A stretch of 56,948 nt of DNA, filler included, from Streblomastix strix (taxonomy: Eukaryota), in assembly GCA_008636045.1 (NCBI GenBank). It is 3 parts of 3 records of this genome, joined end to end, with 100 filler letters (N's around TTAATTAATTAA, not from the genome) between each part and the next. Parts side by side here need not be neighbours in the genome. Positions count along the whole stretch, not along the records: positions 19,036 to 37,952 come from SNRW01000560.1; 2 more parts are not named here. The stretch is one strand, 5' to 3'. Both the position numbers and the translations under genes were made by a program. Shown piece after piece: positions 5,466-44,370 of the stretch. Numbering within the stretch: position 1 is the first letter of the stretch; each line of letters starts with the position of its first letter. The notes beneath the pieces are model-generated. The model had not been told where the DNA came from. It searched no databases and was given only the letters and a program-made list of their open reading frames with translations.

Positions 5466-5699
5466 ATGTAATTAAACAAATGGTGATTTTCATTGTAGAT
5501 GACCATTTTTTGTTTTGTTAACTATATATAGCATATATAGTGCTGTTCCCTGATCTAGTTATTGCTCTCAAATACTCGCTCTAGGCTATGATACTGATTT
5601 TTTTACTTTTTTTTGCTGTTAGTAAAATCCAAATATATTATTTTAATAAGATCGATGATCTATTCATTTAAATTTATAAAACACATGTAAGTGAAGTGA

Positions 5700-10464: not shown

Positions 10465-11289
10465 TGAAAAAATATATTTATTTTGATTTCATTTTTAAAT
10501 AAAACATATAAATTTTATCTAATTTTTATAATTTTAATGTATTCTTGCTAGTAGTCTAGAAAATTAACTTACGAAGACTTTTCGAGACTTTTGTAATTAT
10601 ATTTTTATTTCTTTTTTAATATTATTCATCAAATAGATTCAATTGTTGTTATCTACCAAAATGGACTTATTTACATTTATCTATCAAACGGACTTCCGTG
10701 TTGTCTTTCAACAAACAGAAATCATTTTTAAACTCTATCAACAAAACTTCTTTATTTTATTCTATCTACAAATAATTTTGATGATTAAATAATTTAAAGT
10801 AAACTAAACTTAATTTTTAATATTTTGAATATTGAATTTTGGTATTTCAAAAATAACTAAATCTTATTTTTCGCTAAAAAATATTAATTTCTCATGTTTT
10901 TCAATAAATTGTTTTAATTTCTTGTAGACAGAATTTTGAACATTTTTATTTTTCAATTTAATTAATATAATTATTAAACAAATTTTGATAAGAAATTCTA
11001 TTAACGGAATTTATTTAATCGTACTGTAATTTTTTAAATAATTTTCAAATTTGTTGAATATTACTTATAATATTTTTTATAGATCAAAGAAATTGAAAAA
11101 AATTTTTTTAAATAAACGCAATATCTAAACGATTATTTTATTTATATAGCATTTACACAAAATTTCTAACCAATTATTAAAAAGATGCCATATTTTCAAT
11201 AAATATTTTCAAATATTCCGCCAAACTATTATTTTTTCATTAGCAAACTTTTTTCTATATAATATTAGTCCAAATCTTTACATAAATAT
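10465..11289. repeat. 5' non-coding region of the mariner element (second copy at 2129-2954)
   Basis: Direct repeat of 2129-2954; starts a few nt upstream of the transposase ATG. Confidence 0.9.
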
Positions 11290-15520: not shown

Positions 15521-15760
15521 TGTATAATTAGTCAAAAGATAAGTATTTGCTCATTTTACAATAGCAATAAATTAATAAAAAAGTTTGTTGATTAAAAGTT
15601 GATTTATAAATATATGTTTGTTTTTTCTTAATACAAAATGAGTAACAATTATGATGATGCCGAAATCCATGAAAAAGTCTAATCAAATGATAATAATATT
15701 GATGAATAATTAACATAAAAATAAAAATATATACTATTAAATGAATTATCTTTATTATTT

Positions 15761-16154
15761 GATCCAAAATCAGTCAGAAAATATTTATTAATTCATCTTT
15801 TACTAATGTAAATATCATCACATGAGATGAATAGCGCGTTGTAAGTTCCACAATATAAAATTTCACGGTGAGATGATAAATTAATATTATATACTGCTAA
15901 ACATTTATAAGAAAAAAATGACAACAATAATTTAAACATTACTAAAGAAATTGAAAATTTAAAATTCATTTTTTTAATAATTTTGAACATTTTTGAACAT
16001 TTTTTGTATTTATTTCGTATCATTATTTTGATGATAAATATATAAAGAATTAGTGTAGATTATTATATAACTTAATGTTGTCAACTACGTTGACTTCCTA
16101 AAGGCTAATGCTTTGTATTCTGATTCTTTGAGTAATCCGATTGTCTCTCATCTT
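15761..16154. repeat. Inverted copy of the 5085-5465 repeat
   Basis: Reverse-complement alignment by eye. Confidence 0.92.
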
Positions 16155-18935: not shown

Positions 18936-19035
18936 NNNNNNNNNNNNNNNNNNNNNNNNNNNNNNNNNNNNNNNNNNNNTTAATTAATTAANNNNNNNNN
19001 NNNNNNNNNNNNNNNNNNNNNNNNNNNNNNNNNNN
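18936..19035. other. Artificial contig-joining spacer (44 N + TTAATTAATTAA + 44 N)
   Basis: Exact 100-nt spacer with a six-frame stop linker; an identical spacer lies at 37953-38052. Confidence 0.99.
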
Positions 19036-19959
19036 AAACTTTGTTGATATATGGGTCCAGCTAAAATAATTCCGATTTTTTTCAGCTTTTGCGGAATAAT
19101 AAATTAAGATATATAATAATAAATAAAATAAATAACCATTTCAAATTTAATTACATACTATATTCTTTAAACTATTATTTAAAAAAAAATGTAAATTTAA
19201 TTAAATCCTAATTAGACTTGAAGTAAAATAAAAAGTTAATACTTAACTTTTATATATGCACTTAATTCATTTCTAAACATTCATGAAAATTTTAATTTGT
19301 AAATCAGAATTTTAAAAAATTCTACTTTTAAGTTTTAAAAATTATTTCAATTCATTTGGTAAATAAAAACAAAGAATAATGTCAATAATTTTGATTGTAA
19401 AATATAATAAATTCTATCTCATTATTGAACATACATAATATTCAACATAAAATTAATATAATTACGAAATTATTAAATAAAATTTTAAAAATAAATAATG
19501 AAAAATACAAATAGAATAGAAAATATTTTAAAAATAATCTGATGCACTTTAATATTGTGTAAAATTTTTCACCTTCATAAATTGTCTAATTAAATGGCAA
19601 AGTTACAAAATTTGAGTTTTTCATATTTTTGCAATCTATGATGTATATTTCATGTTTTGGTGAAAAATTTCAAAGATACTAAAATGAAAACTATCGAGAA
19701 AGCTTAGTTTCTTTTTATAACAAATTGAAAATTGAACTTACTGAATATTAATACACATATGTAGTAATTGAATTTATCATCGTTGATATAAGAAAAAATA
19801 ATAAAATAAATGAATATGGAGCAATTTCAAATGAAGATTATGTTGTTTTTTAACAACGTAAATTTTTAATGCATCACAATTTTGCAGCATTTAGGTTATA
19901 TTTTAAATAAGTATAATATTTTATGCATATATGAAATTTTATTACAGAATATAATATTG

Positions 19960-20440
19960 AATTTAGTTATAGAAGCTTGAATGATCTACACTCGATCAGT
20001 TTCAGAATCAGTTTTATTTATTCTTCTGCTTTTTATTCCTAGAACTTCCTCAAACTCTCTTGGGGCGATAGAATCTATATCAGAATCATTCTCTAATTCA
20101 TTATGTTTCCGGAAATGAGGCAATTATCCTTCGCTGAAGATTTACTCATCGCTAGAAGCATGAATTTCAGATGATTAGTCTTCATCAACCGAAAAAGACG
20201 CTTGTGTGCCATTATATTCAGTATCGTTGTCGGAAGCTGCGTCTATCGCAGTAACAAACTGTTCGAATGAAAATGTCGGTCTTGCACAGAAGTCTGGTAA
20301 TTAATCGTTATCATCCTCGTCATTTGAGTTGTCATCGACCTAATTGTTCCGATTCTGCAGTCTAACTGTCATGGTGCTCGAGTAGAAACGGACGCGACGG
20401 TTAATGTTAGCTAATCCATAGAAACAGGCACTCAATACTC
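19960..20440 (-). pseudogene. Acidic low-complexity ORF fragment of unknown origin
   Basis: About 150 open table-6 codons rich in D/E/S, with raised GC and a TGA just upstream. Confidence 0.35.
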
Positions 20441-22613
20441 AATAAACAATGCTAGTTTCCATTAAACATTCTACGTTTGCTGCATAATCATTTTATTGGT
20501 TATATTATTTAATCGAAGAATTATAATATTATCATTTTGACAATAATGCAATGAAAAAAAAATTACATAATTATCAAACAATTTCGCTCTTTTTATTTTG
20601 AAAATAAATAATAGAATATTAAAAAAAAAGAATAATAATTTAAAAAAAATCAGTTTCAAAAAAATCTTAGAATATTGCATGAGAACTAAGCAGAATAAAT
20701 AAATAGCATACATACATTTAATTTTATTTATAGCGAAGAATAAGTCAATCATTCAAATTTTGAAGATTTCATACATTCAATTTATTCTGCTTATATACGA
20801 TCATTAAATTATATTTATCATTTAATATTCTTCTTTTTCATATTATTATTAGGTCAATCAAACTATATACTTCTTTAATTTCTACAATTGTAATTGCCCG
20901 AATTGGTGAGATTGGTAGAAATTGGTGATGTAGCTGATTCACTTCTAATGGACCAAAATATTAAATTTGAAGAAGGCCTATCTAACTTCAAAGCAGATAG
21001 AGGAACAAATAGAAATAATAATATAGTTAAATTATTTCTTAGGCTATTAGTTTTGTATTAATACCATAAAAAATTATTTTTCTAAATTGTTTTGCTTCAT
21101 TATTTTTGTATTGTTTTAATTTAAATAAAATTTTTTATATATATAATTTTTATGTTTCTGGTATTAATTATCATGAGTTATAATATTTCTATAAAGAAAT
21201 TTAGTTTTCTGATGAATTGAATTGAATATTGATCCAAATTAATGCTGTGCATTTATATAATTCTTTAAAAATTATTTTTTGCAATTTTCATTTGAGACTC
21301 AGAGACTGTCTTTAATTATTATAAATGATTTATTTAATTCTGCTATGAAAGTGGTATCTAAATAAACAAAATATGAATTAATATTTGATTCAATTTATCT
21401 AAGAAAAGATAGCAAAAATGTCCCATTTTTTAAAGTATTAAAATCGATCTCAGTTTAAATTTTATATCCAAAAGATTAAAATCTATCATACATCTATACT
21501 TATCTATAATATAAGCAAAATTTTTAAATATTTACATATATGATAATAAATTCACACTTTATTTCTAAAAAATATAAATTATGCTTAAATATGCTGCAAA
21601 AATCGCTTAAAAATGCTGTTAAATCGTTGTAAAGCACAGCACATTAAATTCTCGATGAAAATTAAATATTTTTTTTAATTTTATAACGATTCATCAAATA
21701 ATTCTATAACATATATTATTTTCATCAATAATGACACTAAGTACATATGTAGGCGGGGAGTAAATTGAGCACTAAAAATCATCTTTTTTAAAAAAAACTA
21801 ATAATTCAGACTAATAAACAATAATAACGATACATTTTAAAGAATAAAATTTATAATTTGTTTAATTGATAAGAATTATTAACTCAAATAATAAAATAAT
21901 TGCTTATTGACGGACAAAAATTTTGGCTTTTTTTTACAAATTTATTTATTGGACTATTTTAATAATAGCCCTTATAATTTTGCTCAGCGCACGTTTAGCG
22001 CTCTTAAAAGCGTTTTTGTCCAACACTATTGGTATTATAAAAAAGTTCTTGAAATTTGTACTCAAAGTTATTACCGGAATGCTTTAAACAGATATTGATT
22101 TTTTTGACAGTAAATATTCAAAACAAACATAATGTATAAGCTTCGAACAAATATCTAGTGCCTTTCTATTTAATAATATGTTAGATAGCCAGATCAAGTG
22201 ATATCTGAATTTTCAGAAGCACTAGAAACTTCAACCACTTTATTAGTCACCAAAAATTGGATTTTTCTACTTTTAAATACTTTAAAGGTTATATTCCAAA
22301 TTTTTTATTAAAAATACTATTTGATAATAAGACAAATAAGTAGCATAGAATGAAGAAGTTTGTGGTAAGTTCAAAATCGTATTTATTATAATCAATTTAT
22401 CCGCGATTTTGAACTTTTTTCGTCAATTTGCGAAAATCCCCAGAGCGGAAGCATATACATTAGTATGGTTCCTTTAATCATAGGAAAATGAACAAAATGA
22501 TGAAATAGACAAAGCGTGAATAAATTGATTATAATAAATATTGTTTTGAACTTACGGCAAACTTTCTTCATGAGCAATGCTAATTAATTATTAAAAATAA
22601 ATTAATGAGGGTT

Positions 22614-22820
22614 TCACTCAGTGATGCTTAATTAATCTTTGCTTTTAAGATATGCATCAGATATACGTATTATATCACGTATACTACTTAACATAGCATA
22701 TAGATTTTATACTAATTTTTTCTTTGTATCAATTTCTTTAATTTCATTATTAAGTTGTTAGCATTATTATTGTAATTTTGGTTCTATCTCTTTAAAATAT
22801 TCATACATTTATTTATCCAT
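22614..22820 (-). CDS. Viral ORFan, 68-aa coiled-coil
   Basis: ATG to TGA open in table 6 (MDKQMYEYFKEIEPKL...), caaaATG context. Confidence 0.65.
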
Positions 22821-22853
22821 TTTGAATAAATTACAATAAAAAAAATAATAATA

Positions 22854-23471
22854 TCAATATAAATCAAAATCATTGTATTCTTATTACTATTCTTCTTGGG
22901 GTTATTCTTGAATGATTTATTAAGGTTCCTGTTAAATTTATTATGGCTCTTCCATTTCAACTATCTATTTTGATTATTTGTTTCGTTTTGCTTTCAATTT
23001 ATATTTCTCTATTTGTTTGACAGCATCTTAATGTTATTGTTTAATAAATGAATTTTCAGTTCTCAACCTGATTAATTCTTCTAAATCAAGTTGAGGATTA
23101 GTGTAATTAATTTATGAAGTTTTTTATATTTTTACTACACTTTTTCTAATTTACTTCTTTAATGGTTTTTCTCGTACTTCGCTTATGGAATCATCACTTT
23201 CATTTTATTCATCTTATTGTTCTTAAGATATAAAATCTTCATCATCAATTTATTTTTAAGATGTTTTTTAAACATTTTTCTTTGGAGCAACCCCTCCTTT
23301 AGCTTATAACAGTAATTTATTCTACTATGTTTAAGTTAATTTTTTAAGTATCTTTTTCCTTTCTTCGAATGCTTTAATTTCCTTATGAATTTGGATGACA
23401 TATCCGTTGTCAAAGTATTCAATATTTGTTCCTTTCTCTATTAAATTCTTCAATGCGTGTTGTAAGTCCAT
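22854..23471 (-). CDS. Viral ORFan, 205 aa, K/E/Q-rich
   Basis: Open table-6 frame MDLQHALKNL...EYNDFDLY*. Confidence 0.8.
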
Positions 23472-23494
23472 TTGAATAATTTTAAATTAGGAAA

Positions 23495-24244
23495 ATGATA
23501 AAGGGCATAGAAAGAAACTAAATTCGCATGTCAGAATCCAAAAAATAAATGTCTGAGATTAAACATAAAGAATTAACGGATGAAGATAAAATAAGATTGC
23601 AATTGATCGATGAAGCTATCAGTAGGATTAAATCAATGCCAGCAGTCGATGAAACGACTAAAACCGAAGGTTCTGGCATAAATGCTAAACCTAAAGAAAA
23701 TGAAACATAAACCTAAAATGAAATTATTACATCAACGCATGAATAATTAATCCTTACAGAATAAAAAATTACTAAATATATGAGTAAATATAATAAAGAT
23801 AAATATAAACAAGTAGATAGAACAACTGCATAAGTTGAACCAGATGAAGTAGTTATAAATACTTATCTTTCTCATCCAAATCTCGCTGTAATGAAATTCA
23901 TCATAGAATGCTTATGGAAGACAGTAACTACAAGAAAAAGAGGAGATGATTTCATACTTTCATCAGAAAATTTTATTAAACTTTGGCCATTAATTACTTA
24001 AGAAAATGAAGATGATATTGAAATAGTATTAGAAGAACCATTGATGCAATCACATTCATGCATAGGTAAATTATATAAAAAGAAAGATTTGATTCGTGTG
24101 ATGGATGTATTAATTAAAAACGTTTGTATATCAGTTATTGATAATGTACTTTTTAACTCTATTGAGAAATTATATAGAATCAACAAGGATTTCGTTCGTT
24201 TATCTGATGCTCCTACATCAGAGATTACCAAAGATGATTTTTGA
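23495..24244 (+). CDS. Viral ORFan, ~231-249 aa (alternative ATG at 23549)
   Basis: Open table-6 frame that includes the track ORF 24041-24244 as its C-terminus. Confidence 0.8.
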
Positions 24245-24300
24245 TAATTATTTTAGATGTCTAATTTTTTACTATTTAATTATTTTTATTTATTACATAA

Positions 24301-24739
24301 ATGTTTTCACAATCCGAAATCGTTAGAGGAAAATTGCTCGAGAAACCTTAAAATATCGCAAAGGAAATTAACGTTGAACCAAATTATAAATGTGGTGATG
24401 ATTTCTATTAACGAACAGTAAATTAATAGAATAAACCATACTTTAAATTATTGAAACGTTATGGAAATAATCAATGGAATCCATAAACGGTTTATATTAT
24501 GATTGATAAAAAAAAATAATGAACATATTGAAGAAACAATTAAATAGTATTCTCAACAGATGAAAGAACTTAGTGATAGAATTATACGGTATTCAATACG
24601 TAACTTTACTGAAGCTGAAGCAACTAAATTTTATGAAATGAAACATGCCATTAAATAAATGTAAGAACAAACAAAATACAATAAGTACTGTTAATGCGGA
24701 GTTAAAAATGAAGTCAATTGTATATAATACTACGTTTGA
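24301..24739 (+). pseudogene. Viral ORFan with a frameshift in the poly-A run near 24510
   Basis: MFSQSEIVRGKLLEKP... continues as NEHIEETIKQYSQQM... in another frame after an A9 run. Confidence 0.55.
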
Positions 24740-24792
24740 TGACTGAGCATTTATGCCCGCCAACGATGTTGGTTATTATTTTTGCAATAAAA

Positions 24793-25563
24793 ATGGATCA
24801 ATAATTAAGTGATTTGGATATGATTGATGAAGATGAATAATCTATGTAATAAGAACAGGCAGTTAAATTAATACAATAGTAGGAATAGTAATAAAAATAG
24901 ATAAATGATAGGAATAATTTATTTTAAATCATTGATTAAGAAATAATAAAGTATTTTAATTATTTGAGTTAATTCTTTAAAAAAATCAAAGTTGATTTAA
25001 CTAATTTTGTAACATTAAGTATTGATTAATTTATAACAGGAATCAAGACATTTTTATATCCAATCTTTGCAAGTAAAATTGTTAAATAAGGTGGAACAAA
25101 TAACTAAATTCTATTAGCTAATGGAGATGTGATTGATAAGGATTAATTAGCGTATGAACCAATTGAAAATGCACGTTATTCAGCAATTGCACTGGGAATG
25201 TATGAGTAACGTATATGGGGTACATTAACAACATAAAATAGAAGAGTATTTATTTCACTGTAAATAACTCATTCGGATCAAAATACAGTATGTTAATCAG
25301 GATATACTTTATTCTCAATCGTTGATAATGCTATCAAACCCAAATTCAGTGGAACACCAACTAACATACCATTATATGCTGTTATGTTTGCGTATAAAAG
25401 ATGGAGTTATCCAATATTATGGAATGGTGCTATTCCTATTGATTGTTTTATTAATCCTAATGGTAATGTTATAATAAATACAATGTGTTAGTTAGGTTTA
25501 ACTGAAGATTTTTGTTTACAGATATGTGATTCATATGCTATTCATAATTAGTCGGCTAATTGA
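24793..25563 (+). CDS. Short fibre/spike-like protein, 256 aa
   Basis: Open frame with an N-terminal coiled coil, then FVTLSIDQFITGIKTF and KIVKQGGTNNQILLANG. Both motifs recur in the long fibre. The C-terminus is beta-rich. Confidence 0.75.
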
Positions 25564-25727
25564 CATATTTAAAAATAAACAAATGGACGAATTCAGTGAA
25601 ACTATCATCTATTCTCTGGAATAATTGAACATTAATTGGCATTCTATCTTTAAACAATTTGGGAGGCAGCGATCAAATATGCATGCTAATCAAAGATATG
25701 TAAATGAAAAATAATTATTTTTGCTTT

Positions 25728-27671
25728 TCAACCAGCATTAATCGTACTTCCGCCAAGCTCACCAATAACGTCAATATTTAACACTTATGGATCAGGATTA
25801 TTATCAAATGTAATTCGCATAAATGTATCACATAGATAATGCATCATTGGAGTAATAAACGCTTTAGTTGGATCAGGATAACTTCTCATAGCAATAAATT
25901 CTTTTAAATCATATTAGTTCTAATCTTTATTTATCTCTGAACTATCTAATACTCATTTAGTCAAATTACCATGTAAAATAACTTATATATTTGTTCTTGC
26001 ACCTAATTTTGAAGAATTATAGCCTCGCATAAATGAATCATCAGTAGCTAATTTCTATGCAAGCATTTATTTGTAAAGATATAGTGTTTTAGTAATTTTT
26101 GTCCCTTCAAATAATGTAGATACAGCAAATACATTTACATCTCCACTTCCATAGAAATTATCTTTATCAGAGCAGTTTATATTTTCAAATGTAAGTGAAT
26201 GATATAGATCTGATGGAGCACTAACGACATCTTAATCAACGAAATAATCAAACATTAATCCAATAACGGTTTGTGTTAATGCTTCATATGGTTATGGAAC
26301 TACATGTCGTTAATCAATAATCAAATCAAAATCATAAAATAATATAGGATAGAACCATGTTGGATACTATGGCATGGCAAACGTCATAAATAGTGATTTA
26401 ATATTAGAGAATGACATAATACTTTACATAACACCACTTGTATCAGTAAAACCACTAAATGGGAAATTTGATGATTAAGATCTAAATACTTAGGTAGGGA
26501 AATTGACTATTCTTTACTATCTAATCATGTTAACTATTGCAACTTCATTTTCAACATTAAAACATATGTTCTATATCTCTAATTTTTCAAATTTTGCATT
26601 ATTAATTTAACTAATACTGTTCTATGGTACCCTATCAGCAGCTGCAGCATTTTACGTATTGACTATTCTTACGTTAAATTTTTTATAACTAAATAATCCT
26701 TCTGCAGTAGGCTCCTTTAATAGATAAACTGTGTCTGGTTTCTCAGGTGGAATCATGTGATAAGCCAAGTGTTAGTTTCTTACCGTATCTTATTTGTTAA
26801 GTCAAACTACCTTCAAATCCTACAGGTAATCTTATATCCAAAGTTATAGAAAAAGTGAAGCGTTATTCCTAGTAAGAACAGGAAATGAGTTAAAGATTGG
26901 ATTTAATTAATTAAGATCAAGAACACTACTAAATGTAATATCAAATGGAATTTTTAAATGCTATGGAGTTTTATCACATCTTCTATCAATATCACATAGA
27001 GGTATATCAATAAATATTCGACAATGACATTTATCATTAGTGATACTTTCTAGAGGAGAAACACTAACGCTATTGCTAGTACACAAATCACTCAAGGAAT
27101 TAGAACTAATTGCAGCTTATTCTCTAGCATATATTGAAGTTCCCCATAAAGCAGTGGCATCACGCATCAATTGAAATTGGTGAAATGGTCCACACGCAGT
27201 GGAGAATCCAAGCCAAATACGTAATCGATCAGAATTATCAAATCCTTCAGCTTATTTTCCATAATACTTTTATGCGCCTTATGTCATATCTACTGTTACA
27301 TTAGTTTATGAATCTACTTTACCATTGAAGTTAATTTTCTTATTTAAATCATCTTCTTCCTCATTTGATTCATTTAATTATATCGCTAATGTATCTTTAG
27401 GTATGGCAATTGTCCAATTCACTTAGCATGTTTATACCATTGAACAAGTGGCTAATCCCCTTGCTCCTAGTGGTGCTCTAGTATATTTAACTCCACTAGA
27501 TGTTAGTTCATTTACTGGTTAATCAGAGAATTATTGCTTGGAAATTGAAAGTGATCCTGGATGAATAGTTAATGTTTTTAATATATCACCTAATTACATA
27601 TATCCAGCAACATAATCAGAGTGTTACATTTTTTACAAACTGGCTAGATAATCACTAGATTTGAATGACAT
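25728..27671 (-). CDS. Probable major capsid protein (double jelly-roll), 647 codons, with two premature TGA
   Basis: Single frame from ATG 27671 to TGA 25728, with in-frame TGA at 26802-26804 and 25953-25955. Beta-strand-rich (RIWLGFSTACGPFHQFQL, NIKSLFMTF, FDLIIDQRHV). Size and context fit a Maverick MCP; the fold is inferred. Confidence 0.75.
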
Positions 27672-27738
27672 TTCAATAAAACAAAAATAACTGTACGCTG
27701 ATGACGATAATGATAATAAATTTTTATATTAAATCAAA

Positions 27739-27948
27739 ATGGGTTTCTTCTCTGGAATAGCGAATTTTGGATCGAAAATTTTAGGCGGTGTTAAGAAAGC
27801 AGCGTAATGGGTAGCACCAGCATTACATAAAGTTTTATCTACTATCTGCGGTCCGGTAGGAATGATTTATCCTGGAATTGGTGGCGCATTAGGTGCAGGA
27901 GCTAATCTCGCAGGTGCAGTTGATCGATTGGTAAATAAACGTAATTGA
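27739..27948 (+). CDS. 69-aa Gly/Ala-rich amphipathic peptide, candidate membrane-penetration or core protein
   Basis: MGFFSGIANFGSKILGGVKKAAQWVAPALHKVLSTICGPVGMIYPGIGGALGAGANLAGAVDRLVNKRN*. caaaATG context; divergent from the MCP. Confidence 0.85.
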
Positions 27949-27968
27949 CGTAACTTATCTTTATAAAA

Positions 27969-30092
27969 ATGAACAGCTCATTATCGTAACAATAAATCCG
28001 AACAGTTAGATAGTTAATCACTAACGATATTGCTTACTATATTCAATATCAGAAACGATCTAGTTCAAGTAATGGAATGATATCAAATGATGAGTATCAA
28101 TTATTCATAGATAATAACAATGCATTAGTCTACGCCGCTAACAATTAAATCGTCGATGATATGACATCAGATTACGCATTAAAAATAGAACCAAATGGAC
28201 TATTAACAATAAAGAATTTGAAGGTGATTAATTTTGATTTTGTTGCATAGATTAATTAGTTGATTAATTAAGTGAATTTACTATAACAATCAATTGGAAC
28301 AACAGAATAGGATACCACTGATATAAAAAATGATATTGATACAATTAATTAAGAATTATCACGATAAATTCATTTCAGAGGATATTATTTATTGAATACA
28401 GATATATAAAATTTACATAATTCCGCTAATGGTGATTTTGCTTTTAGTGCTGAAAGTGGGACAGTTTGGATGTTTGATGCATCTTGGTATAATAGTGGAG
28501 ATATTGTTCCAGATTAAGTAACACCAGCTAGTGATGCAACACCATTATCTGATGGTACAGCAACTGCAGGAATTAGTACAGAATATTCACGTGGCGATCA
28601 TGTTCATCCATTAAATATAACAACTACTATTCCATCATAGGATAGTGCAAGTGGATCTGTTGGTACAAGCAATTATTATGCTAGAAACGATCATTCACAT
28701 ACAATTAATATTGAGACTAATGCTTCAAATATTCCAATCGCTAATGGTGTTGGTGCTAATGGAACATCAGCTTTTTATGCTAGACAAGATCACGTTCATC
28801 CATAGTAATTAACTTATGATGGTAATGTTACAGCAACTAAGTTCATTAAAACTGGCGGGACAGTTAATGATATATTGCTAGCTGATGGTTCTACTAAATA
28901 ACAATATTATGCAAGCAAATTATATCAAGCTGTTGATTAATCTTAATATATTAAATTATGTAAGTTTAATGCTTTAAGTTTTTCTACTGATATTTCAATT
29001 GAATTCAAAGTAGCTACTAGAAGTGGATTTGGATAAATATAATTTAATTAACATTGGACTTAAGATTTAGGGAGAAATAACTATTAGTATAAATTTATTC
29101 CAACATTAGCTTCTGGTTTTAATAGTGCATGGATCTTATATTTTGGAACTGATTTAGATAGATATGGAGAATTATGGAGTCCAATAGATAGCTATTCTTA
29201 TAATACTGTTATAAATTAAACAGATATAAGCGCTTTTTAGGGTAATATTACTGAAATATTAACCACTGACGCACAACAAGCATTACCTACAGGGTAAAGT
29301 AGCATATAACAATTATTTCTAAACATATATAATAGTTTATAAGTTAATCCAACTGGTAATAATTATAATTAAGGCATAATAATATCACGGTCTGTTAATA
29401 ATTATAGTGGAATATTTCTTGGTTGTGATCCTCTATCAACTACAGGACCATTAGCAGATTAATGGAGTATAGTAAATGCAAATAATGGTGAGTTAAGGAT
29501 AGGAGTTAATGATTAAATTACTGCGGTTAATTAAGGACTAATGATATCAGCTGATGGATAAGCTTTAACATTTAACGGTAACTAATTCGTTGATTTAACA
29601 ACAGATTAAGCATTAGCAGGAATAAAAACATTCCATAAATTAGTATAAGTAATTCCATCAGCTAATGGTACATTTAACGAAGGGATAAGAATAAGTAGAC
29701 ATTCAACAAATTAATGGAGTAATATATAATTTGGTAGCGGTCCAAATTCGAATAGTGGTAAGATTGATAACTAATGGCTGGTAGGATCAACTGGAAATAA
29801 TGGTGCAAATCCTCTTGGTTTTGTCATCATAAAAGCAGGATAAGAAGGTTAGGCTGATAGAGGATTATAAATATCTGCTGATGGAAACGCATTATCTTTC
29901 AATGATACTGTAACAGCAGGAAATGGTGCAAATAACGGAGCCACAGATAGGTCAGTTAATTATCCTGCATGCAATCAAATCTTATGGGGTGCAAATAGTC
30001 TTAGAACAGATGGTGGTTTCTATAGTAATGGAACTATTATATTCTGGAGAGCCCATGCGTTATAATTTGATCCGTACTACTAAGGATAATGA
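27969..30092 (+). CDS. Long phage-tail-fibre-like protein, 707 aa
   Basis: Fully open table-6 frame. Three repeats YSRGDHVHP/YARNDHSHT/YARQDHVHP; FIKTGGTVNDILLADGS; two repeated domains (NQGIIISR/NEGIRISR ... GLxISADG). Confidence 0.85.
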
Positions 30093-30111
30093 GGATTATT
30101 TTTGAAATTAA

Positions 30112-30570
30112 ATGGAAAAACAGTTAACGTAACCGTTCAAACAATTATTCAATGAATTAATCAAATCTCACTTTAATGATATCGATTCAATTAAAGCTAC
30201 AATTGAAGCATTATAAAATTTGTTAAAGAATGATATAATAGAATCAATCCATCTATTAATCTAAGAATTAATGAGAATCAATAAAATGTTTACTAATCAA
30301 TAGCAATAATTATAAAATATAAAGAAGATGGTAGATGAAGAAGACTATAAAAATAAGTTATTTAATGAATAGGATAAGTACTTCAAAAATAAATATCTAT
30401 TAATCAAAAAGTCATTAGATCTAAACAATTAACCATAACAAATAAAGAAGTACATTATCTCTGATGCTAGTGAAGAAGAAAAATAGATTTACAATTAATT
30501 TGTGAATGATGAATAATACAGTAACTTCGTCAATTATTATCAGCTTAATTTAAAATAATAAGATTGCTGA
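30112..30570 (+). CDS. Viral ORFan, 152 aa, helical
   Basis: ATG to TGA open in table 6. Confidence 0.75.
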
Positions 30571-30778
30571 TATATTATATATATTTGATTATCTCTTCAA
30601 TTTTATCTTAGATTGGTTCAACGAAAGTATAATGTTATTTGAATTATTCATACAATTATTTTTCTTCAATTGATAGATCATTTATCTCAATTAATGCTTC
30701 AAATATTTTGAAAATCTCATAGTCAGACGCATTATACTTATCACCAATGCTTCTTGCTAAACTATACAATTATTCCAT
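30530..30778 (-). CDS. Viral ORFan, ~82 aa
   Basis: MEQLYSLARSIGDKYNASDYEIFKIFEAL... The 3' end overlaps the convergent ORF, so the true end is uncertain. Confidence 0.5.
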
Positions 30779-30788
30779 TACATTTAAT

Positions 30789-31181
30789 TCAAACAATTTT
30801 TTTTTATGGCAAATTTAACATTTTAAGATAAAGGATGTATCTCCAATGAGTAGCTAATTCCAAATCTTTATTTGATATTGCTTCATTCAGAAATGTTTCG
30901 ATTTATTCAACAAAAAATTACGACCAATGTATGCTAGGTTAATTCTTATCCATTTTTCTTTTGTAAAAGTATTGTATAATGTAAATCGTTATATTTAATG
31001 GGACCAATACTATATTAAAATAACTCCATAATGTTTTTACAATATTAACAGTGTCCCAGAATTTCTCCGGTATGGATACTTATATGATTGATGTTATAAA
31101 ATTAACGCCATAGAACATGTAATTCATTATCCCCATGATTAACGATAGCAATTTCATTGCCGCCGTAGGTAGTATGGTCAT
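30789..31181 (-). CDS. Small viral membrane protein (2 predicted TM helices), 130 aa
   Basis: LLSLIMGIMNYMFYGVNFITSII and LWSYFNIVLVPLNITIYIIQYFY, followed by KRK. Confidence 0.7.
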
Positions 31182-31197
31182 TTTATTATTTTTGAAA

Positions 31198-32217
31198 ATT
31201 ATATTATAAGAATTATAAGATATAACATTTACTAATCAGGATCTATTGAACGAATATAAAACTAAGCCATTAACGAAGAATTCATTGTTCCTGATTAATG
31301 TAAATCATTATATTGTGGGAGCTGTTGGAAGTGGTAAAACAACATTAATGTGCAAGCTAATTGTGATATATAAAAAAATCATTAATCCATTCATATAATA
31401 CTTCTCGAATTATGGTGCAGATGAAACTAAGGCATTAAACCTAAACAGTAAGAACATTAAATTAACAAATATGACTTATGGAGAAGCAATGACATTTCTA
31501 CCTGAATTTGATGAGATAAAATACTCTACTAAAGTGACGTATACATGGTATAAGATGAATGAATAAAAATAATCATACACTAGCGATTTCATTAAACGAA
31601 TGGAAGAGTAAATCCTATAAAATAATGAGATAAAAAAGAATGAAAAACTTAATGATTATCTTAATAGAATTGCTAAACTATTCAAATAAAAAGTAATTGA
31701 AACCATTAATACATACAGTTAATCAACCAAGATATTGAGATTTGAAATTCCTGCATTAATTCAAAACGTTAGTTACCAAAAGAAATACAAAATTACTGAT
31801 GATGCATAAAATGCAGTTATTAAAATAATGAAAATACCTATATTAGAAAAAGCTTAATTACTCAATACATTAATGCTCTTGGATGATATTGGATCTAATG
31901 CAGACATCTAACGATTCAGTTCATAATTATCTAAAACAGTTACCCATCTCATTAGTGATTCTCGTCATTCAAAAAATACTATTTTCTTTATAGCTTAACT
32001 TCCAACTTATTTGTTTAAGACAGCTATGATATTAACCCATGTAATTTGCTTAGGTATAAACATCGGTGAGAGTGATCTTAAACAGGTTTATGAGGAAAAT
32101 TCCATATAAAATTTAAATTTTGATGAATTCATGATATTATAAAGGTCATTAAAGAAATATGACTTCATCATTCTGAACAAATGGATTGGTTAGTTCTAAA
32201 TTTTGAAAAATAAATGA
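31198..32217 (+). CDS. A32/FtsK-HerA-type DNA packaging ATPase (~339 aa; no ATG before Walker A)
   Basis: Walker A YIVGAVGSGKT, Walker B LMLLDD, arginine-finger/Gln motif DSRHSKNTIFFIAQ (Q encoded by TAA). Confidence 0.92.
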
Positions 32218-35200
32218 TCAATTAAATGTGAAATCTTTTGAAGAAAGGCCGAAAATAAATGGACAACATGATTAATTCTCTAGCACTGGCATTTTCGTAT
32301 GGATTCCCGTGATTCTATTTTTTTCGATAGATAAATAACTTATCTAATGATTCTTCTAGCCCAATCTCATATTAGTGCATTTCGTTATTTTTCCTTCATT
32401 AATGCAATCGATTATCTATGCTTTAGTGATTTTGTTAGTCTTCTAATTAACTCCTTTTAGTTTTATTTTTGAATTTCCATTGTAATTTGTTTCAATCATA
32501 TAATTTTTAGGAGCTAATGCCACCATTGATATTCCTTATCTTTCGATCGATAATCCAAGGATTTTATTTTCATCATATACATCGCCTCTAATCGTGGGAA
32601 AGTAATACTTAGCATTATCGTTATAAAAATCTCGATCACTAATCACAGCTTTAAATTACTAAGGAAAATCTTCATTAGGATTACCATTAATCGCCCAATA
32701 AGCTGAATCAGTATCTCCTTCAATAAAATGTATTTTATTCATATCTAAGCATTTATACATGAAATTACATATGAAATTTAGATACCAATATTTAACGTTA
32801 TCCAATACAAAAAAAAGCTACTTATAAAGGTGTTTTATAGTTACAGTGTTCTGGATTCATTTATACAATATAACTGTCTTCAGATATCTTTTGTTCATCC
32901 ATGAAGGCGTTAGATCTAATTGCTCTTTCTGTCTATTTCTTATTCATTATTTTTACTTCATGATATTTCTCAGTGTTCATTCCATCACTACCATAAGAAC
33001 TATTCATAACAATCTTAAAGAATTATTCCTATCCATTATTCTCATCTAATTTTGCTTCTATTCTAATTTTAGTAAATTCCTTAATAAATGAATTGAATTA
33101 ATCATGTTAATTGAATAGCACTTTCTATTTTGCATCATCTATAATAAAATGGCAATCATCAATCAAGAACCATTGGTAATATGAGCTAAATGCCATGAAT
33201 TCTCCCATCGTTGATGTAAGATTAGTTAGTTTACGTTATTTTTGATCAGAGCTAACATTATTGTTTTTCATATGATTATACATATAACTACCGATAGTTC
33301 GTTCATCTGTTGTGAATTCATAATTGCTTAGGATTGGTGGAAAATTAATGATATCGTTAATGTAATTCTAATCAATGTGGCCTTTAACTTCTGCTAGGAA
33401 TTATTGACCATCAGATGTAAATCTCTTTTTAATATTAATTATTCGTAATATTGTTTATTTGGAATGGTCATTGTTAGCAGAGCTCAAACCTACGGTTTCT
33501 CCCATAATCTTACCTGTTTATGATCCATACATATACATTTTTCCACCTGTACACTTAATAAATTAATGTGGTTCTGATGACATAACACTAGGATATAATG
33601 AATTGAAATCAACACCAACTACATGAGTAATTCTATGATCAGTTGTCAGAACTGTTACCTTCTTATTTTACTTATCATACCATAATCGTTTTATAAAATC
33701 AATTCCTGATCTATTGACTCGATGCATTACATTTGATAATCCACCTGCGATCCATTTTCTGATTAAATGATATACATCAATATCTGTTAGATTAGTTGGT
33801 GATCATCTTATCATACAATATTTATGTAATTATATGAACAATTTACTTATATTTTTATCTTTATCCGAGCAGAAGCAATTACAGTATAAACAACAGGGCT
33901 AAACATTATCTTTTGAATGACTCTTTGAATTATCGATTCTATCTAATGTTGGCTTATTATTCCATGTAAATTTACATCCACATATTTTGCAGTTAGATTC
34001 ATTGAATAATCGTTTGAAATATTCATAATCACTATCTTTTATACTATTTTTTATATCAGTTTTTTTTATATTTATCTTATTGAATATATCCTTTCACTTT
34101 GCTCTACAAATATTGCTCAGTTAAATGAAATTTCTACGATTAATCAGTAAAATTAGGATATATACCATTAATGTCAAAATCTTCATACGCTTTGGCATAT
34201 TTGATAGCATTAGAGCATGCAGCCATACTCATGAAACTGAACATATCAATCTTATATTAAAATTATAAGCTAATCAATGTCATTAGTGGGTTAACCATTA
34301 CATACGTATCTTATTCATCAAAGAATTGTAGATAATCTCATCTATTTTTAAATCGTTTTGCTTCATCTAGATAAATCTAATAATCCTTCTAACTAATTTT
34401 GGTTTTCTTTAATGATGAGTTGAAATCTTCCATTGAAAATGGCTCTGATTTACTTAGTACTTCATTAACGTTATCAATGTTGAAAAATTCATAGGGAAAT
34501 AAGCCTTATTTATCGTCGTAACCATCGCAAAAATCTTTTGCTGCTTACTTTAATTCCGTAGGTTAAAGATACGTTAACATATCAACAAGTTTCATCTTTA
34601 AATTCAATTTTTTATGATGCACAATTACCAATTTAACTGTTGATGGGCTACCAGTATAATTACTAATTGTCCAATCTTTGCATTACATATACGATATGAT
34701 AAATAATAAATCAAATCTTGAGCTATTGAACCCAACAATTGGCACTTCAATTGAATATGGAATTTTCTCATCAATTGTCCCAGCTGCTGTTAAATATTAA
34801 TTATCAGCATTAACTTATTCTGCTTCTTTAAACAATTAATTTAACCATTAAACTATGAAATCGTTCCCATCCTATTAGCTAAAGAAGATTTTCTTAATAT
34901 CTTATTTGTTACGGATAGTTGATGCAACTGATAGGGGAAATAATTCATACATTTAATAACTTGATTTAACAAATTTTTTATTAACGATTTTAGGAACAGT
35001 TTCAAGATCATACGTGATGAAATATTATGTTGGTTTATATTCATTTTCTCTTCCATTAGCTAATAGATATTGATAAGTTTTATTCTGCATGATATGTGGA
35101 CAATATGGTTTTTATACATAATCCAGTTTAACTTTCTTAATTATTTTTCCACCATTATTCTCACATTTAATATTGTGTTTTTCATAATCTCTTGAGTAAT

Positions 35201-36856
35201 TTTTATCTTTAGGATCGAACGCTTTTGAATTACAGTGTGGGCAAAATTACAATCCCATTAATGCTTATTTATTAGCTATGGCAAATGCATGCGCTATCTT
35301 ATTATTTTCCCATATCGATTCAACAACTAATATATCAATTGTCTTAGATTATTATTGCACGATTGTTTCATTTTAATTAATTTCATTATAATCGTTGATT
35401 TGTTCACATTAATGCATAATCTACAATCCTCTATAATAATTCTTATGTTCATTATCGTAGTAGTAAATGTCATGGTTAATTTTTAACTTTTATGATACAA
35501 TTTACGCATATTTAGTTATATCTAATCCATCAAATACTTTCAATAAATCAGTCATTTATCTACTCTTTGAATCGAATGGTAGCTCTAATACTTAAACTAA
35601 TAGTTACTTGCTAATGCTAATAATTTCATCAGGAAAATAACGTTTTTCCTTCGAATCAGAATGTAATGCTTTTGCTATTGCTTCCATATAGCAGTTGTTA
35701 TTATTTCCAGTATTTTATATATAACATTTTTGCGACCATTACAATGAAAATCGATCAATTCTTTCATACTAGCTCCAACAATTTATGGTTATAGGTTATA
35801 CGTTTTGATTGGCATGGAATAGATAGCTATATATAGTTATCTTGTGCTATCTAATGTGAAATTCTATTTATTAATTATATCAGCTTTAATGTATTGCTAA
35901 TACTCTTCAATGTCGTCTTAATTTTATATGACTTTAGGAGAATGTTCTTATATACGTGTATCTCTAGCTAAAATATATCCATAATCAACTTAAACTTAAT
36001 CATTCTAATCATGTTTATATTCTTCATAAAAGATTCTAAAATTAAATTGTATCTTGAACGCTTAATGGTGTTGTGCATCATAAATTTCATTAACGTACAT
36101 CTCTATACCGGATAATGATTAGATAACATTATTATAATGTAATTGACTTAATTATCCCCGCTGCTCATCCATTTAATTTATTATACGTTCACGATTGAAG
36201 CCTGTTTTTGCGCCATCAACTGTATCAATAAATTACTCCATTTTCTCTGGTTGAAAATACAATATAACGCCTGCATCATTATCTATTTAATTAACGTCTT
36301 TTCCTTTATACTGATTAATTTTATCTTTAATCTCTTTATTTTATTAAGCAATAATTTGGTATTGTAGATTAGCTTCCTATTCTTCTTCCATTATTCTTCT
36401 GGCTTATTCCTATTCTTCTATGATATAATTAGTCCAGAAATCGTTAGCTTATTATTACTCTTATTATTAACGATATTCCTATAAATCTTATTCATAATAA
36501 TTAGAATGATAGTGTGTTAAATCTTAATGTAATTATCAATTTTATTCATCTATTTCATAATAGAAGATATCAGCTTATTTCAGCAATTATTCTCTACGAT
36601 ATTCTTATAAATCTTATTCATATTGATACTATTTGAAATGCAATCTCTGATTGATATTCAATGAATTATATTAATGTATTTATTTTAGATGTGATTTCAA
36701 TTCACTATAGTTACTTCTTCCTGATTTCTTATAATCAATCTTGTTTAAATATTCAATGAGTTATTGTTTAAGCAAATATATTTTTAATGATTCATTAACG
36801 TTTTTGTTGTTGATTTTGAGCAATTTAACGATCTCCGCTTTCCTTAGTTAAACCAT
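32218..36856 (-). pseudogene. polB: Protein-primed family B DNA polymerase (pPolB) with C2HC zinc finger and HNH-like insertion; several frameshifts and TGAs
   Basis: ExoI YDLET, ExoII GFNSSRFD, GLFPYE, PolA VDFNSLYPS, PolB KIVMNSSYG, PolC EGDTDS, KLKGV; CPHC...HNIKC; TLDRIDNSKSH..DNV..CC..CN. Confidence 0.95.
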
Positions 36857-36903
36857 TTGTTAAAAATAAAAAACAAATATAGAACAAAAACAATTTAGAC
36901 GTC

Positions 36904-37952
36904 TCATTAAAATTATATCTCTAACAATAAATTATTATACATGTCCATATATTACATAGGTATTTTTCTTCCAAAGTTATCATATAATGTAAACACTAAC
37001 GTTTTGTTCTATCCTACTAAGCATTATTGACTCATCATATTCTATCCTCATAGTACTGGCGCTTCAATTAAATTTTGTTTAAAGCATACATTTGAGAACC
37101 CATTACCACCAACTGATTACATAGTTATTCCTTATAATTAATTAGATACGCAAATTATTAGCATTTATGGATACTCTAGAAAATTCCCTATATATGAACA
37201 GAATATTGGTAAATCAACTTCTAAGCTTTCATTATCATGTTTAGTTTAATAGAACCATACTTCTAGATCAATTTACTTAATAGCTGATGCTAAATTAACA
37301 AATTAATTAGCGCTATTCTCATTCAATCCATCATATAGATCTTATCCACCAACTAATTGAACATATAGATTTGGTGACACTATTATACGATTAGCGAACC
37401 AATAAGTGTTATTTTAATAACAGTAATCAGTCACAACTAATGGGATAAATTAACCATAGTAATTTGTTCTTCCAACTGCTGTATAAATATCTTACCATTC
37501 TCCTATAGATAATGCAGGTAATGAATTGATAATTCTAACTGGAAATGTATTAATATTATTAATGATTTATTACATTGTTTATTGTTATACGTTAATTGGT
37601 TAAGCATCAGATGTGGTAAATGTTCCATTAGCATTTATATCAACTTACTTACCAAATAAGTATCTTATTGATAGGCCATTCCCTTATGTAAAAGATTTTG
37701 GTTCAATTGATGTAATATAATTATTTTATGTTGGGCAATATAATCGTACTAATCCAATCATTCGATATAACTCATTAACTGTGGAATCTAAGATCCAGTA
37801 GTGATAAAGAAATGCATCGATCCTAAGATTAATATAATTGATTGCTGAATTCACTATATCTTATCCATAATTCTAGTTTAATGAGAACATATTATTTTAT
37901 AATTTTTATACATGCTCGTTAATTGCATTATTAAAGCATATTGCCCCACTGT
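36904..37952 (-). CDS. Probable minor capsid (penton) protein, 5'-truncated by the contig end, frameshifted near 37075
   Basis: About 290 open beta-rich codons. The C-terminal VSVTLYDNFGRKIP...LLLEI resembles the terminal strands of Polinton/virophage pentons. Confidence 0.6.
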
Positions 37953-38052
37953 NNNNNNNNNNNNNNNNNNNNNNNNNNNNNNNNNNNNNNNNNNNNTTAA
38001 TTAATTAANNNNNNNNNNNNNNNNNNNNNNNNNNNNNNNNNNNNNNNNNNNN
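37953..38052. other. Artificial contig-joining spacer
   Basis: Same structure as 18936-19035. The contig lengths 18935/18917/18896 look size-sorted, so there is no synteny across spacers. Confidence 0.99.
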
Positions 38053-41827: not shown

Positions 41828-44370
41828 TCACACCAACTTACAGAAAAGCGTTAGCAAAGACATACGTTATCCGCTAATCCCCATGAATCTTTTTGCTTGT
41901 GAGAACTTTTTCTCAATTCCAGCTTCTGAAGAAGGAATTGCAAGAACACTATCTATAAAATCGATGAAAATTTTAATCATTGGATTTGATTTATTTTGAC
42001 ACTGCCAATATCCGATTTAGTTATCAATGAGCATCTCATCATCCATATCACCATATTTTCCAGCCCAAAAAAGAACAGCTTTATTTGTTAAATATTATAA
42101 TAACATTAATTTTTCGTCATTCAACGTTTAATGTATCATTTAAATTACTTGTTTTTATTTAAGATCATCAATTGTACTTGTAAGAAATGTAGCTGTTGGT
42201 GAATTAATACAAGATTTACCTGTGATGATTTGATTGTGAATTGGTGTACCTGTAACAGAAAATTTAGGAAGCAATTCCGGTTAAATATCTCGAAGGATTT
42301 GGATTCTTTGAATTGAACTATTAGATATTCTTTCAATTTATTAAGTATCTTCAATATCTTTTTTCATTAGAGAATTTGAAAATGGCGATTCTTGTTTGAT
42401 TTCATATTATTAATTAATCTACGAAACAATTTATTGATCTTCTATTTCATTCAAATCTAGACCGTTGATGATTAGTAGTTTCCAATTTTATTCATAATCT
42501 GATTTACGTAATTGATATGTTAAATGGTTTATTTCTTCCTCATTAAATTGGATGTGATGACTCAATTTCAACCTTATATTTAGAGTTTATTCCTATTATT
42601 TAGCTTAATTCTGATTTTATTAATGTCTTGATAATGCGTAATCTTTCAATTTTTAATGATAAAAGTAAATAGAAATTCTTTTAAGGTAATCTAGCACCTT
42701 GAATTCCAATTGATCTTTTGAACAAGAATAAAACATGGAGCAGTGGGATCTGTTATTTGAATTTGAGATATGGCTAGTTGATATGCATTTTCAATTTTTA
42801 ATTTAAGTATTCTATGCTCGGGATACTTATCAGGTTTCTGAGGAATTTGAATTGATTTGATATCAAAGAATGGTATAGATGGAATAATTTCTGAAACATA
42901 ATACTTTGATACAAAAGTTAATTTTAAAGACTAAGTAGTAGAACTGATCATTGCCAGATTTCTCTATTGCATCAATTTCTTCCCTGAGTAACAAAATGCT
43001 AAATCACAAGCAAATAAATCTATATAATCATCACCAAAAATGTAAAAAAATATTTTCTTGCAAAGTGTTTTGATGAATGAGAGCCATGGTTCATAGCTAA
43101 AGATTGTAACTAAAAGATGATAATAATGAATAAGTAGAAAAACAGCTAATGGGAAAACATTTGAGACTTGTGATGTATTAGACTCAAGAACACTCGTTGT
43201 TTCAAATAAAGGCTTAGTCAGATAGTAAATATGTGTAGTAAATTTAACGGAATTATATTTTCTACTTGATTTCAATTATATAATTTCTTCAGAATGATCC
43301 ATTACTTGCTCTGCAACGAGAAACATTCCAATCCATCTTGTTTTGCCATAAGATTTTAAATAAATACTAAGTTCATTAGAATTCGATTATGAATGTAATG
43401 AACTTATATCTTCTTCCATGATTATTACTATAGCATAAATGTCGTAATGCATATCAATAGCATTTTTTAGATCTCTGTCAAGAAAATGATTAGCACATCT
43501 GTTTTGAATTAGTTTTGACAACCGTTAGGGAAGAAATATAGAGTAGTTTTGCTTAGAAAATGGTGATAATGCTGACGTGAACGATGAACCACCATTTGTT
43601 GTGGCTCCTCCAACCCCAATTTTGAATTGCTGCAAATATATTATTGTTTAAGTAACAAGTTTTGACAATCCATCAACTGTACAAAGTCTAGTATATATTG
43701 ATAAAAGTGTTGGTTCAGGAGAAATTAATGGATAAACTAGATACACTGGAACAGCATGAATATGAGACATCATTCCTGCTTCAAGAATAAGAGTGCCTTT
43801 CTTATTATAAAATACTCTCAACCTTTCAATACATTTCGAATGTGCTTTCTAAACCATTTTTTCTTTTAGTTTATAAATAGTTATCTTTGGTTATAAAGAT
43901 TCAGGAGTTTCATTTGGAAATGTCTTTTATAATCCTAATGAAGTTTTGATTACTCTAAGCATTTAAGACGAAATGCACACTTCAAATGGTACTTCGTGAA
44001 CCTTATGCAGATCTTCAAGTACATCAATAATAGAATCTGAACTTAACTGAATTTTCAAACTCTGTAATTATCTTTTAATAATCATGTTCGATTGAATCAA
44101 AGTTATCTAGCCTACTATTTCATTCACAAAAATTTCCTTCATATTTTACATAGCAATGAATATTTCGGAGGCCTGACTTTTTGCTACTTATCAATTCCCC
44201 TTCACTATTACATTTTGAATAGACGCAAACTTTATAAACACCTTTGCAGAAAAACTCACATCTAATTCAAAATTCTTTCGCTAAAAACGAATGAAGTGTT
44301 ACTTAAATGTATTCAATATCGCATTGAGGTTCTGATTCTTAACCGTTTAGAAAGGAAAATCTTTCCTACG
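41828..44370 (-). pseudogene. hAT-superfamily transposase, near full length, decayed
   Basis: RCANHFL (CxxH), KTRW, VLES and the dimerization motif LAIPSSEAGIEKKFS. Several TGAs and frameshifts. Confidence 0.85.

Follow-up and report, generated by a model that had tools for sequence, protein, structure and literature searches.

A probable attachment fibre of bacteriophage-type modules in an endogenous polinton-like virus of Streblomastix strix

Introduction

Why the genome of a protist should hold a reading frame resembling the tail fibre of a bacteriophage, and what its product might attach to, are the questions raised by a locus of Streblomastix strix, a protist of the termite gut. The locus lies within a stretch of 56,948 nucleotides, filler letters included, from assembly GCA_008636045.1 (hereafter, the window), and an earlier note on this DNA had proposed that it encodes a phage-style fibre in an endogenous virus. 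Endogenous viruses of S. strix that carry major capsid proteins (MCPs) of the Metamonada group and use the genetic code of the host are described in one published report (PMC10120064), the main text of which does not contain the word 'fiber'. In searches of open papers, supplements aside, that report was the only one found to combine Streblomastix with polintons or endogenous viruses, and none was found for oxymonad, polinton and fiber together. Phage-like fibres are known in polinton-like viruses (PLVs), including those of many other protist groups (PMC12220804), and the fibre protein Ltf has been detected in particles of Gezel-14T (bioRxiv 2022.07.28.501842).

Results

Reading frame and genetic code

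The fibre gene occupies positions 27969–30092 of the plus strand and encodes a protein of 707 amino acids (P0001), open only under genetic code 6, in which TAA and TAG are read as Gln. These two codons supply 46 of the 58 Gln codons, against 12 for CAA and CAG. With tables 1 and 11, no long reading frame appears here; base shuffling of the ORF gave an open frame in 0 of 2000 trials, and the other five frames across it hold 8–32 TGA codons each. An intact, modular protein of this length had been claimed before, and all of the named modules are indeed present once code 6 is applied. Contigs from four DNA runs (three studies, one of them possibly the source of the assembly) cover 30 of 30 bins of the region 22500–37900. 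A dip in sequencing depth over the 3' half of the fibre gene cannot rank genes and is left out of the argument.

A search for relatives returned 312 of 7995 scored candidates at E ≤ 1e-3, and the best 120 of these 312 are all hypothetical proteins of S. strix, a few of which are automatically named 'Tail fiber protein' in UniRef. The closest is 72% identical to P0001 over 98% of the length. Together with the viruses described in PMC10120064, this supports by inference the oxymonad host that had been supposed.

Modules of the fibre protein

The N-terminal region (aa 1–88; 27969–28232, plus strand, as for all modules below) has a median identity of 81% among the S. strix copies, where alone relatives of it were found; by analogy with the layout of adenovirus and PLV fibres, it may be the anchor to the capsid or penton. 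It is followed by a predicted coiled coil (aa 89–135; 28233–28373), seen as a helix in the AlphaFold2 (AF2) model, in agreement with the earlier note, and matched weakly by coiled coils of known structure. The next module, with the motif HFRGY..AFSAESGTVW (aa 133–180; 28365–28508), makes up, with the end of the coil and the first HxH repeat, the block that P0001 shares with proteins of gut phages and prophages.

Three HxH repeats with a period of 31–33 residues (28506–28811), the putative needle of an intertwined trimer with candidate metal sites, carry their histidine pairs at residues 211/213, 242/244 and 275/277. The pattern G.S..Y[AS]R.DH.H begins at residues 201, 232 and 265; three repeats ending in YAR.DHxHP had been described, and the number is right, although the first has SR instead of AR and the second ends in HSHT and not in HxHP. 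The GNVTATKFIKTGG..ILLADGS module (aa 282–312; 28812–28904) contains the expected FIKTGGT..ILLADGS motif as FIKTGGTVNDILLADGS at residues 292–308. It leads into a jelly-roll-like beta-sandwich (aa 313–445; 28905–29303), a candidate glycan-binding module that was overlooked in the earlier note and is modelled by AF2 from about residue 315 to 445 with a pLDDT of about 90.

The C-terminal third is built around two related repeats of approximately 90 residues that are 39% identical to each other. Repeat H1 (aa 455–540; 29331–29588) bears the signature QVNP..N[QE]GI.ISR..QW..GL.ISADG; a linker (aa 541–555; 29589–29633) carries the recurrent motif VDLTTDQALAGIKTF, which is the Q..AGIKTF shaft motif noticed earlier; and repeat H2 (aa 556–650; 29634–29918) is 47% identical over 71 residues to P0323, a protein from outside Streblomastix. 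The tip (aa 651–707; 29919–30092) has neither an S74 chaperone nor any relative found beyond the family.

Searches of Pfam and PHROGs gave no real match for P0001 or 26 homologues, and in particular none for Peptidase_S74 (PF13884) in Pfam. A Pfam match to Ntox46 (E 0.02) fell below the cut-off and was rejected. P0001 has no hydrophobic leader.

The surrounding element

Downstream of the fibre gene lie a P-loop ATPase (30931–32217, plus strand; Walker A GAVGSGKTT, LLDD), presumably for packaging, with weak generic P-loop matches only, and a broken protein-primed DNA polymerase (pPolB; 32218–36535, minus strand; PF03175, E 2.3e-12), in which about five lesions, approximately three frameshifts and two TGA codons, were counted by eye. 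Upstream is a capsid-like frame of 647 codons with two internal in-frame TGA codons (25728–27671, minus strand), the candidate MCP, which had no match in Pfam or IMG/VR; an MCP scan of viral contigs likewise found nothing. A 280-residue ORF (37048–37890, minus strand), with no Pfam match, is a candidate minor capsid protein or penton. Between the capsid-like frame and the fibre gene is an ORF of 69 residues (27739–27948, plus strand; MGFFSG...), Gly/Ala-rich and amphipathic-looking, that has no Pfam match, is conserved in other copies and is fused to the fibre in some of their gene models. It could be a membrane-lytic virion peptide akin to adenovirus protein VI.

The element also holds a second, shorter fibre-like ORF (24739–25563, plus strand), which has GIKTF and KQGG..ILLANGD modules. 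Its C-terminal domain differs from that of P0001, and in the N-terminal part of its database relative P0105 an H-like repeat stands in the place of this domain. Ahead of it, a plus-strand frame with several TGA codons (24380–24740), lying between two ORFs, is probably a decayed gene of the element.

N gaps flank the region on both sides (18936–19035 and 37953–38052), and the right end of the element meets the latter gap. Neither an integrase match in the element nor an inverted pair spanning it was found within 19036–37952. An inverted pair with arms of 54 nt and a spacer of 101 nt (22356–22564) marks the left border of the viral gene set and is possibly part of an end of the element. Elsewhere in the window, dispersed direct and inverted repeats of 78–93% identity (2173–2954 with 10508–11289, 1378–2142 with 14348–15169, and 5084–5475 with 15751–16154) belong to other repeat families. 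A minus-strand stretch (41828–42790) contains a C-terminal IPSSEAGIEKKFS segment, which is reminiscent of the dimerisation motif of hAT transposases; Pfam gave no hAT match for it.

The fibre gene had been contrasted, as intact, with MCP and pPolB genes carrying stops. The lesions in those genes are present, but the intactness is within chance: given seven lesions across the 13.5 kb of ORFs in the element, the probability of none in 2124 bp is 0.33, and from the MCP and pPolB rates only it is 0.09. P0001 moreover departs from the family at 14 of 219 conserved columns (6.4%, against a family median of 4.2%). Selection keeping the gene intact was rejected as an explanation, and the fibre gene shows no sign of special preservation. 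The element would then be a decaying copy in which this gene has simply escaped lesions so far.

Relatives among phages and bacteria

For the block made of the end of the coil, the HFRGY module and the first HxH repeat, a metagenome scan gave at least 602 pattern matches, at least 340 relatives and at least 77 loci; the HFRGY module is present in 13 of the 77 loci listed. Ten of the 13 loci examined could be aligned: five at 45–51% identity (about aa 101–218), one at 40% (aa 92–253) and four at 30–38%. The 45–51% matches span approximately 105–120 residues and come from phage or prophage contigs of the gut. Six contigs were checked for gene content, and the neighbours at L267, L269, L274, L275 and L277 include portal, major head, tape measure, baseplate, tail-collar or endolysin genes. 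The nifJ gene flanking L269 is nearest to Bacteroidales (62–66%, within a plasmid set only). A resemblance of the phage 'YKG..TYADLP' module to HFRGY, seen by eye, was not supported by hhalign or HMM comparison and was discarded.

When 12 chosen S. strix segments and 13 phage-side segments were placed in an unrooted tree, S. strix formed one side of a branch with 99/98 support, which does not contradict a single origin of the S. strix block as read from these sequences. Because the module tree is unrooted, transfer from phage to virus is the direction that we infer. To judge from the matches, the donors are not Bacteroidota alone, the best-matching block being found in phage contigs without an assigned host and the HxH repeat in 0 of 281 sampled Bacteroidota genomes.

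The HxH repeat is, by sequence, widespread in phages. The pattern ARGDHVHP recurs in at least 126 stretches of IMG/VR, 125 of them in frame, and in 97 of the 107 distinct segments listed the stretch of 21 residues that precedes the search motif conforms to the S. strix profile (p < 0.01 against shuffles). Tail-fibre, S74, collagen, PTR or lyase domains of Pfam were detected in 9 of 20 HxH-bearing phage ORFs scanned. Several phage ORFs (L036–L038, L013 and L074) hold 4–12 R.DH.H repeats each. The repeat itself matched no family in Pfam and therefore looks like an unmodelled fibre repeat. Among sampled genomes, the HxH profile matched in 0 of 281 from Bacteroidota, a count made without a positive control, and in 1 of 281 from a second phylum. 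A tblastn search of cultured phages gave one match, to the HxH repeat only, and none to the C-terminal third.

For the KTGG/LADG module, IMG/VR yielded eight loci with long ORFs, and five of the seven scanned contain S74, collagen or BppL_N domains. Bacterial genomes yielded at least 126 stretches. Of the loci listed, 72 of 80 (66 of 74 contigs) have record titles that we assign to Bacteroidota. The module was present in 4 of 280 sampled Bacteroidota and in 0 of 280 genomes of the comparison sample, search centres left out, counts that are too few alone for significance. Of the 50 listed KTGG ORFs that are complete at the 5' end, 30 have a signal-peptide-like start by a crude rule, and many of these proteins are for that reason probably secreted by bacteria and not phage fibres. 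The motif had been held to be common in phage fibres of this phylum; its enrichment in Bacteroidota stands, but it is rare per genome and often, it seems, in secreted proteins. KTGG/LADG genes with signal peptides are numerous on Bacteroidota chromosomes (L137–L216); a number of them also encode collagen, BppL_N, S74 or Fib_succ_major domains, and their sequences suggest a class of secreted fibre-like proteins.

The H repeats were sought among 1.84 billion representative sequences, with 118 matches, most of which align over their full length to named S. strix proteins. Five proteins from outside Streblomastix were matched by S. strix profiles at E-values, scaled to 1.84e9, from 6e-3 to 1e-23. 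The H module lies in the interior of all five; an S74 chaperone forms the C-terminus of P0323, and a Gp34_trimer domain occurs in P0349. The two repeated head-like domains described earlier are thus two related repeats, as stated, although in phage fibres they are internal modules and not terminal knobs. A word-based search with aa 452–700 against proteins longer than 1238 residues found none, a weak null that the search of 1.84 billion representatives supersedes; beyond the search centre, the H-repeat profile matched in 0 of 400 sampled genomes. The match in locus L136 was judged to be due to chance, and the ankyrin-like P0332 and P0343 are spurious. Seven other fibre-like proteins contain between one and nine copies of the linker motif VDLTTDQ..GIKTF.

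GIKTF-like, KTGG and H modules are found together in a fibre gene of a Bacteroides neonati prophage (L150/G001, 1343 aa), which looks complete, with terminase, portal, head, tape measure, endolysin and integrase genes. The record L194/G003 is titled Staphylococcus sp. but has the same phylum sample as Bacteroides neonati, and the title is probably wrong. The homology with phage fibres that had been proposed is thus supported for the aa 101–218 block, the HxH repeat and the H repeats, all of which matched phage proteins. Neither the putative binding domain nor the tip has a sequence relative in the fetched phage loci or the cultured-phage set.

Variation among the Streblomastix copies

The number of HxH repeats is 3–5 in 102 of the 121 proteins compared. 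Parsing succeeded for 89 of the 121, and 75 have a middle segment of at least 90 residues; these segments fall into three groups of 38, 32 and 5, with no cross-matches at 30%. Median identity to P0001 (117 of 121 proteins) is 81–84% for the N-terminal and HFRGY parts versus 25% for the middle domain. The comparison of genomic copies proposed at the outset accordingly revealed module shuffling, namely exchange of the middle beta-sandwich among at least three types and variation in repeat number. The database copies are gene models, in some of which the fibre is joined with the ORF ahead of it or with the ATPase, and part of the module loss among them may for this reason be artefactual. In our view, variation by repeat number and by exchange of the jelly-roll-like domain would resemble the way in which phage fibres change receptor.

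Predicted structure

The AF2 monomer, predicted from an alignment of 117 rows, has a mean pLDDT of 68.5 and comprises a helix (residues 89–135), a disordered segment (181–293) that includes the HxH region, the beta-sandwich and two beta repeats. A three-copy model was obtained for residues 133–345 of the 72%-identical homologue P0002, in three copies only, with the coiled coil omitted, the alignment unused and zinc unscored; it scored 0.53, against 0.00 for the best of three controls. Its runs agree in at least 89% of contacts, with a pLDDT of at least 78. The mark applied to such scores was attained for 21 of 30 solved self-pairs and for 0 of 23 single chains; for eukaryotic proteins it was attained in 17 of 29 cases, but in 1 of 7 that lack an older relative. 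The score may be helped by likeness to known folds, as HxH fibres have already been solved (PMC11705849). With zinc present but unscored, the predicted contacts between chains include His213 with His213 and residue 211 with 207. The trimer modelling suggested in the earlier note thus gives an intertwined assembly, at least for this homologue; the HxH repeats are predicted to form an intertwined homotrimer, in which we would place the metal sites. The same note had likened the HxH motifs to those of T4 gp37 and gp12; no such solved chain was returned at E ≤ 10 with either the protein or profiles, and a likeness in sequence is not borne out by the searches. Among solved structures, coiled coils were the only sequence relatives found for the modules of P0001.

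Residues 316–456 superpose on the jelly-roll of WceF (PDB code: 6tgf) with Z 11.1 and an rmsd of 2.9 over 122 aligned residues (VIA-align). In the trimer of WceF this domain follows an intertwined triple beta-helix (PMC7949094). Further fold matches to domains of phage tailspikes and fibres, at Z 6.0–7.0, are middling taken alone, and folding of the beta-sandwich from its single sequence reached a pLDDT of only 38.5. The best Foldseek matches in BFVD were mostly tail and tail-fibre proteins, with whole-model query TM-scores of at most 0.20; a model of Gp37 ranks first, at 0.17. A family that is missing from such fold-match lists is not thereby excluded. The beta-sandwich is the best candidate for a glycan-binding module in the model, on grounds of fold likeness together with exchange among the copies; a shared fold alone does not show glycan binding.

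Discussion

We conclude, with a probability of roughly 0.7, that P0001 is the attachment fibre of an endogenised PLV, a mosaic of phage modules that is predicted to be a homotrimer and to serve in attachment to the host. The conclusion draws on the viral context (pPolB, P-loop ATPase and capsid-like frame), the phage modules and the predicted trimer. In such a fibre, the conserved N-terminus would hold the protein on the capsid vertex, and the coiled coil and HFRGY module would start trimerisation. The HxH repeats of the three chains would then twist together as a needle, with one metal ion per repeat bound by two histidines of every chain. The KTGG module would connect to the jelly-roll-like domain, likely to bind glycans at the surface, and the fibre would be lengthened by the H repeats and the tip. 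The default target would be the surface of the protist itself. The modules were most likely acquired from gut phages and then recoded to the code 6 of the host.

The target could instead be bacterial. Filamentous Bacteroidales ectosymbionts coat Streblomastix (PMC2717939), and particles might dock on this coat, or travel with it, before entering the protist. P0001 shares modules with the Bacteroides prophage fibre and with L269, which is flanked by a nifJ gene whose nearest matches in the plasmid set are from Bacteroidales; the beta-sandwich has a fold like that of tailspike domains from phages whose targets are bacterial polysaccharides; and the tails of the virophage DSLV2 are reported (PMC12724248) to bind the lipopolysaccharide of Synechococcus. 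The shared parts are, however, shaft and linker modules, the putative binding domain and tip being those without a sequence relative in the phage sets, and PLVs of many other protist groups carry phage-like fibres as well (PMC12220804), so that phage origin does not imply a bacterial target. We consider docking on the ectosymbionts unlikely, and equally doubt that a swappable, tailspike-like domain from captured gut phage modules binds the Bacteroidales coat. Were it true, more than a hundred genomic variants would record an arms race with symbiont glycans rather than with the protist, and the coat would be a virus receptor.

A role on the virion other than entry, as decoration or as a link that ties the particle to gut matrix or to a helper giant virus, is suggested by the second fibre-like gene in the same element, and Sputnik enters on the fibres of a giant virus (PMC12724248); swapping of a single domain among the copies, on the other hand, fits selection by a receptor. 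To our knowledge, moreover, no helper virus is known for the S. strix host, and a role of this kind appears improbable. We give still less credence to a gene domesticated by the host, with modules drawn from, or now acting as, secreted surface fibres of bacterial type: many of the listed KTGG ORFs (30 of 50) have a signal-peptide-like start, and the fibre ORF is intact where MCP and pPolB are broken, yet P0001 lacks a hydrophobic leader, stands among capsid-like and ATPase genes and finds its longest and closest match in blocks of phage genes, while its intactness is within chance (P 0.09–0.33) and its departures at conserved columns exceed the family median. That a bacteriophage contig was mis-scaffolded into a single-cell metagenome comes to mind, as the source organism is coated with bacteria and N gaps enclose the region. 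It is scarcely credible, since TAA and TAG must be read as Gln at 46 places, as in the neighbouring genes and, reportedly, in S. strix elements (PMC10120064), and the neighbours are of pPolB type and not caudoviral.

The sequence link (45–51% over approximately 105–120 residues) between gut phage proteins and this probable, host-recoded fibre of a eukaryotic virus is unusually close, and one swappable domain in three types offers a testable ligand. Common fibre modules (the R.DHxHP repeat, KTGG/LADG and an EGIRI repeat) go undetected by Pfam and PHROGs in P0001. Should the ligand lie on the ectosymbionts, P0001 would provide a second example, DSLV2 being the first, of bacteria serving as docking site for a eukaryotic virus.

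Compared with the fibres of PLVs (Ltf of Gezel-14T/PgVV and those of cryptophyte, Paulinella and Trichomonas elements), P0001 is similarly long, modular, composed of phage tail modules, encoded in an element with pPolB, ATPase and capsid-like genes, and presumed to be a trimeric attachment fibre. It differs in that no S74 chaperone, collagen, laminin G, PTR or gp36 domain of Pfam was detected in it, and in having HxH repeats, a swapped beta-sandwich, code 6 and a block 45–51% identical to gut phage. The tails of DSLV2 (PMC12724248) are likewise fibres of phage ancestry on a eukaryotic virus, for which bacterial docking is proposed; they are encoded by three short gp37-like genes, form a heterotrimer of about 58 kDa and are backed by binding assays, whereas P0001 comes from one gene, is a predicted homotrimer and shows no sequence likeness to gp37.

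With fibres that hold metals along their axis, such as the T4 gp37 tip and gp12 of Alteromonas phage R22Y (PMC11705849), P0001 has in common repeated HxH pairs and predicted like-with-like contacts at the axis; its repeat, however, is 31–33 residues long, ends in R.DHxHP and has no sequence match to solved structures, and its metal sites are putative. The jelly-rolls at the C-termini of tailspikes (WceF, 6tgf; Acinetobacter phage, 6c72 and 6e1r) and the Pa193 fibre (9b45) share the fold of residues 316–456, but at 6–11% identity, and in P0001 the domain lies mid-protein with no beta-helix depolymerase domain. The Bacteroides neonati prophage fibre shares GIKTF-like, KTGG and H modules through weak, short matches; it has neither an HxH nor an HFRGY block, and its GIKTF-like motif stands ahead of KTGG, whereas that of P0001 is placed between the H repeats. 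Phage-like fibres in this group of viruses are already known, and P0001 belongs to a published class, to which it adds a close match to gut phages and a swappable domain.
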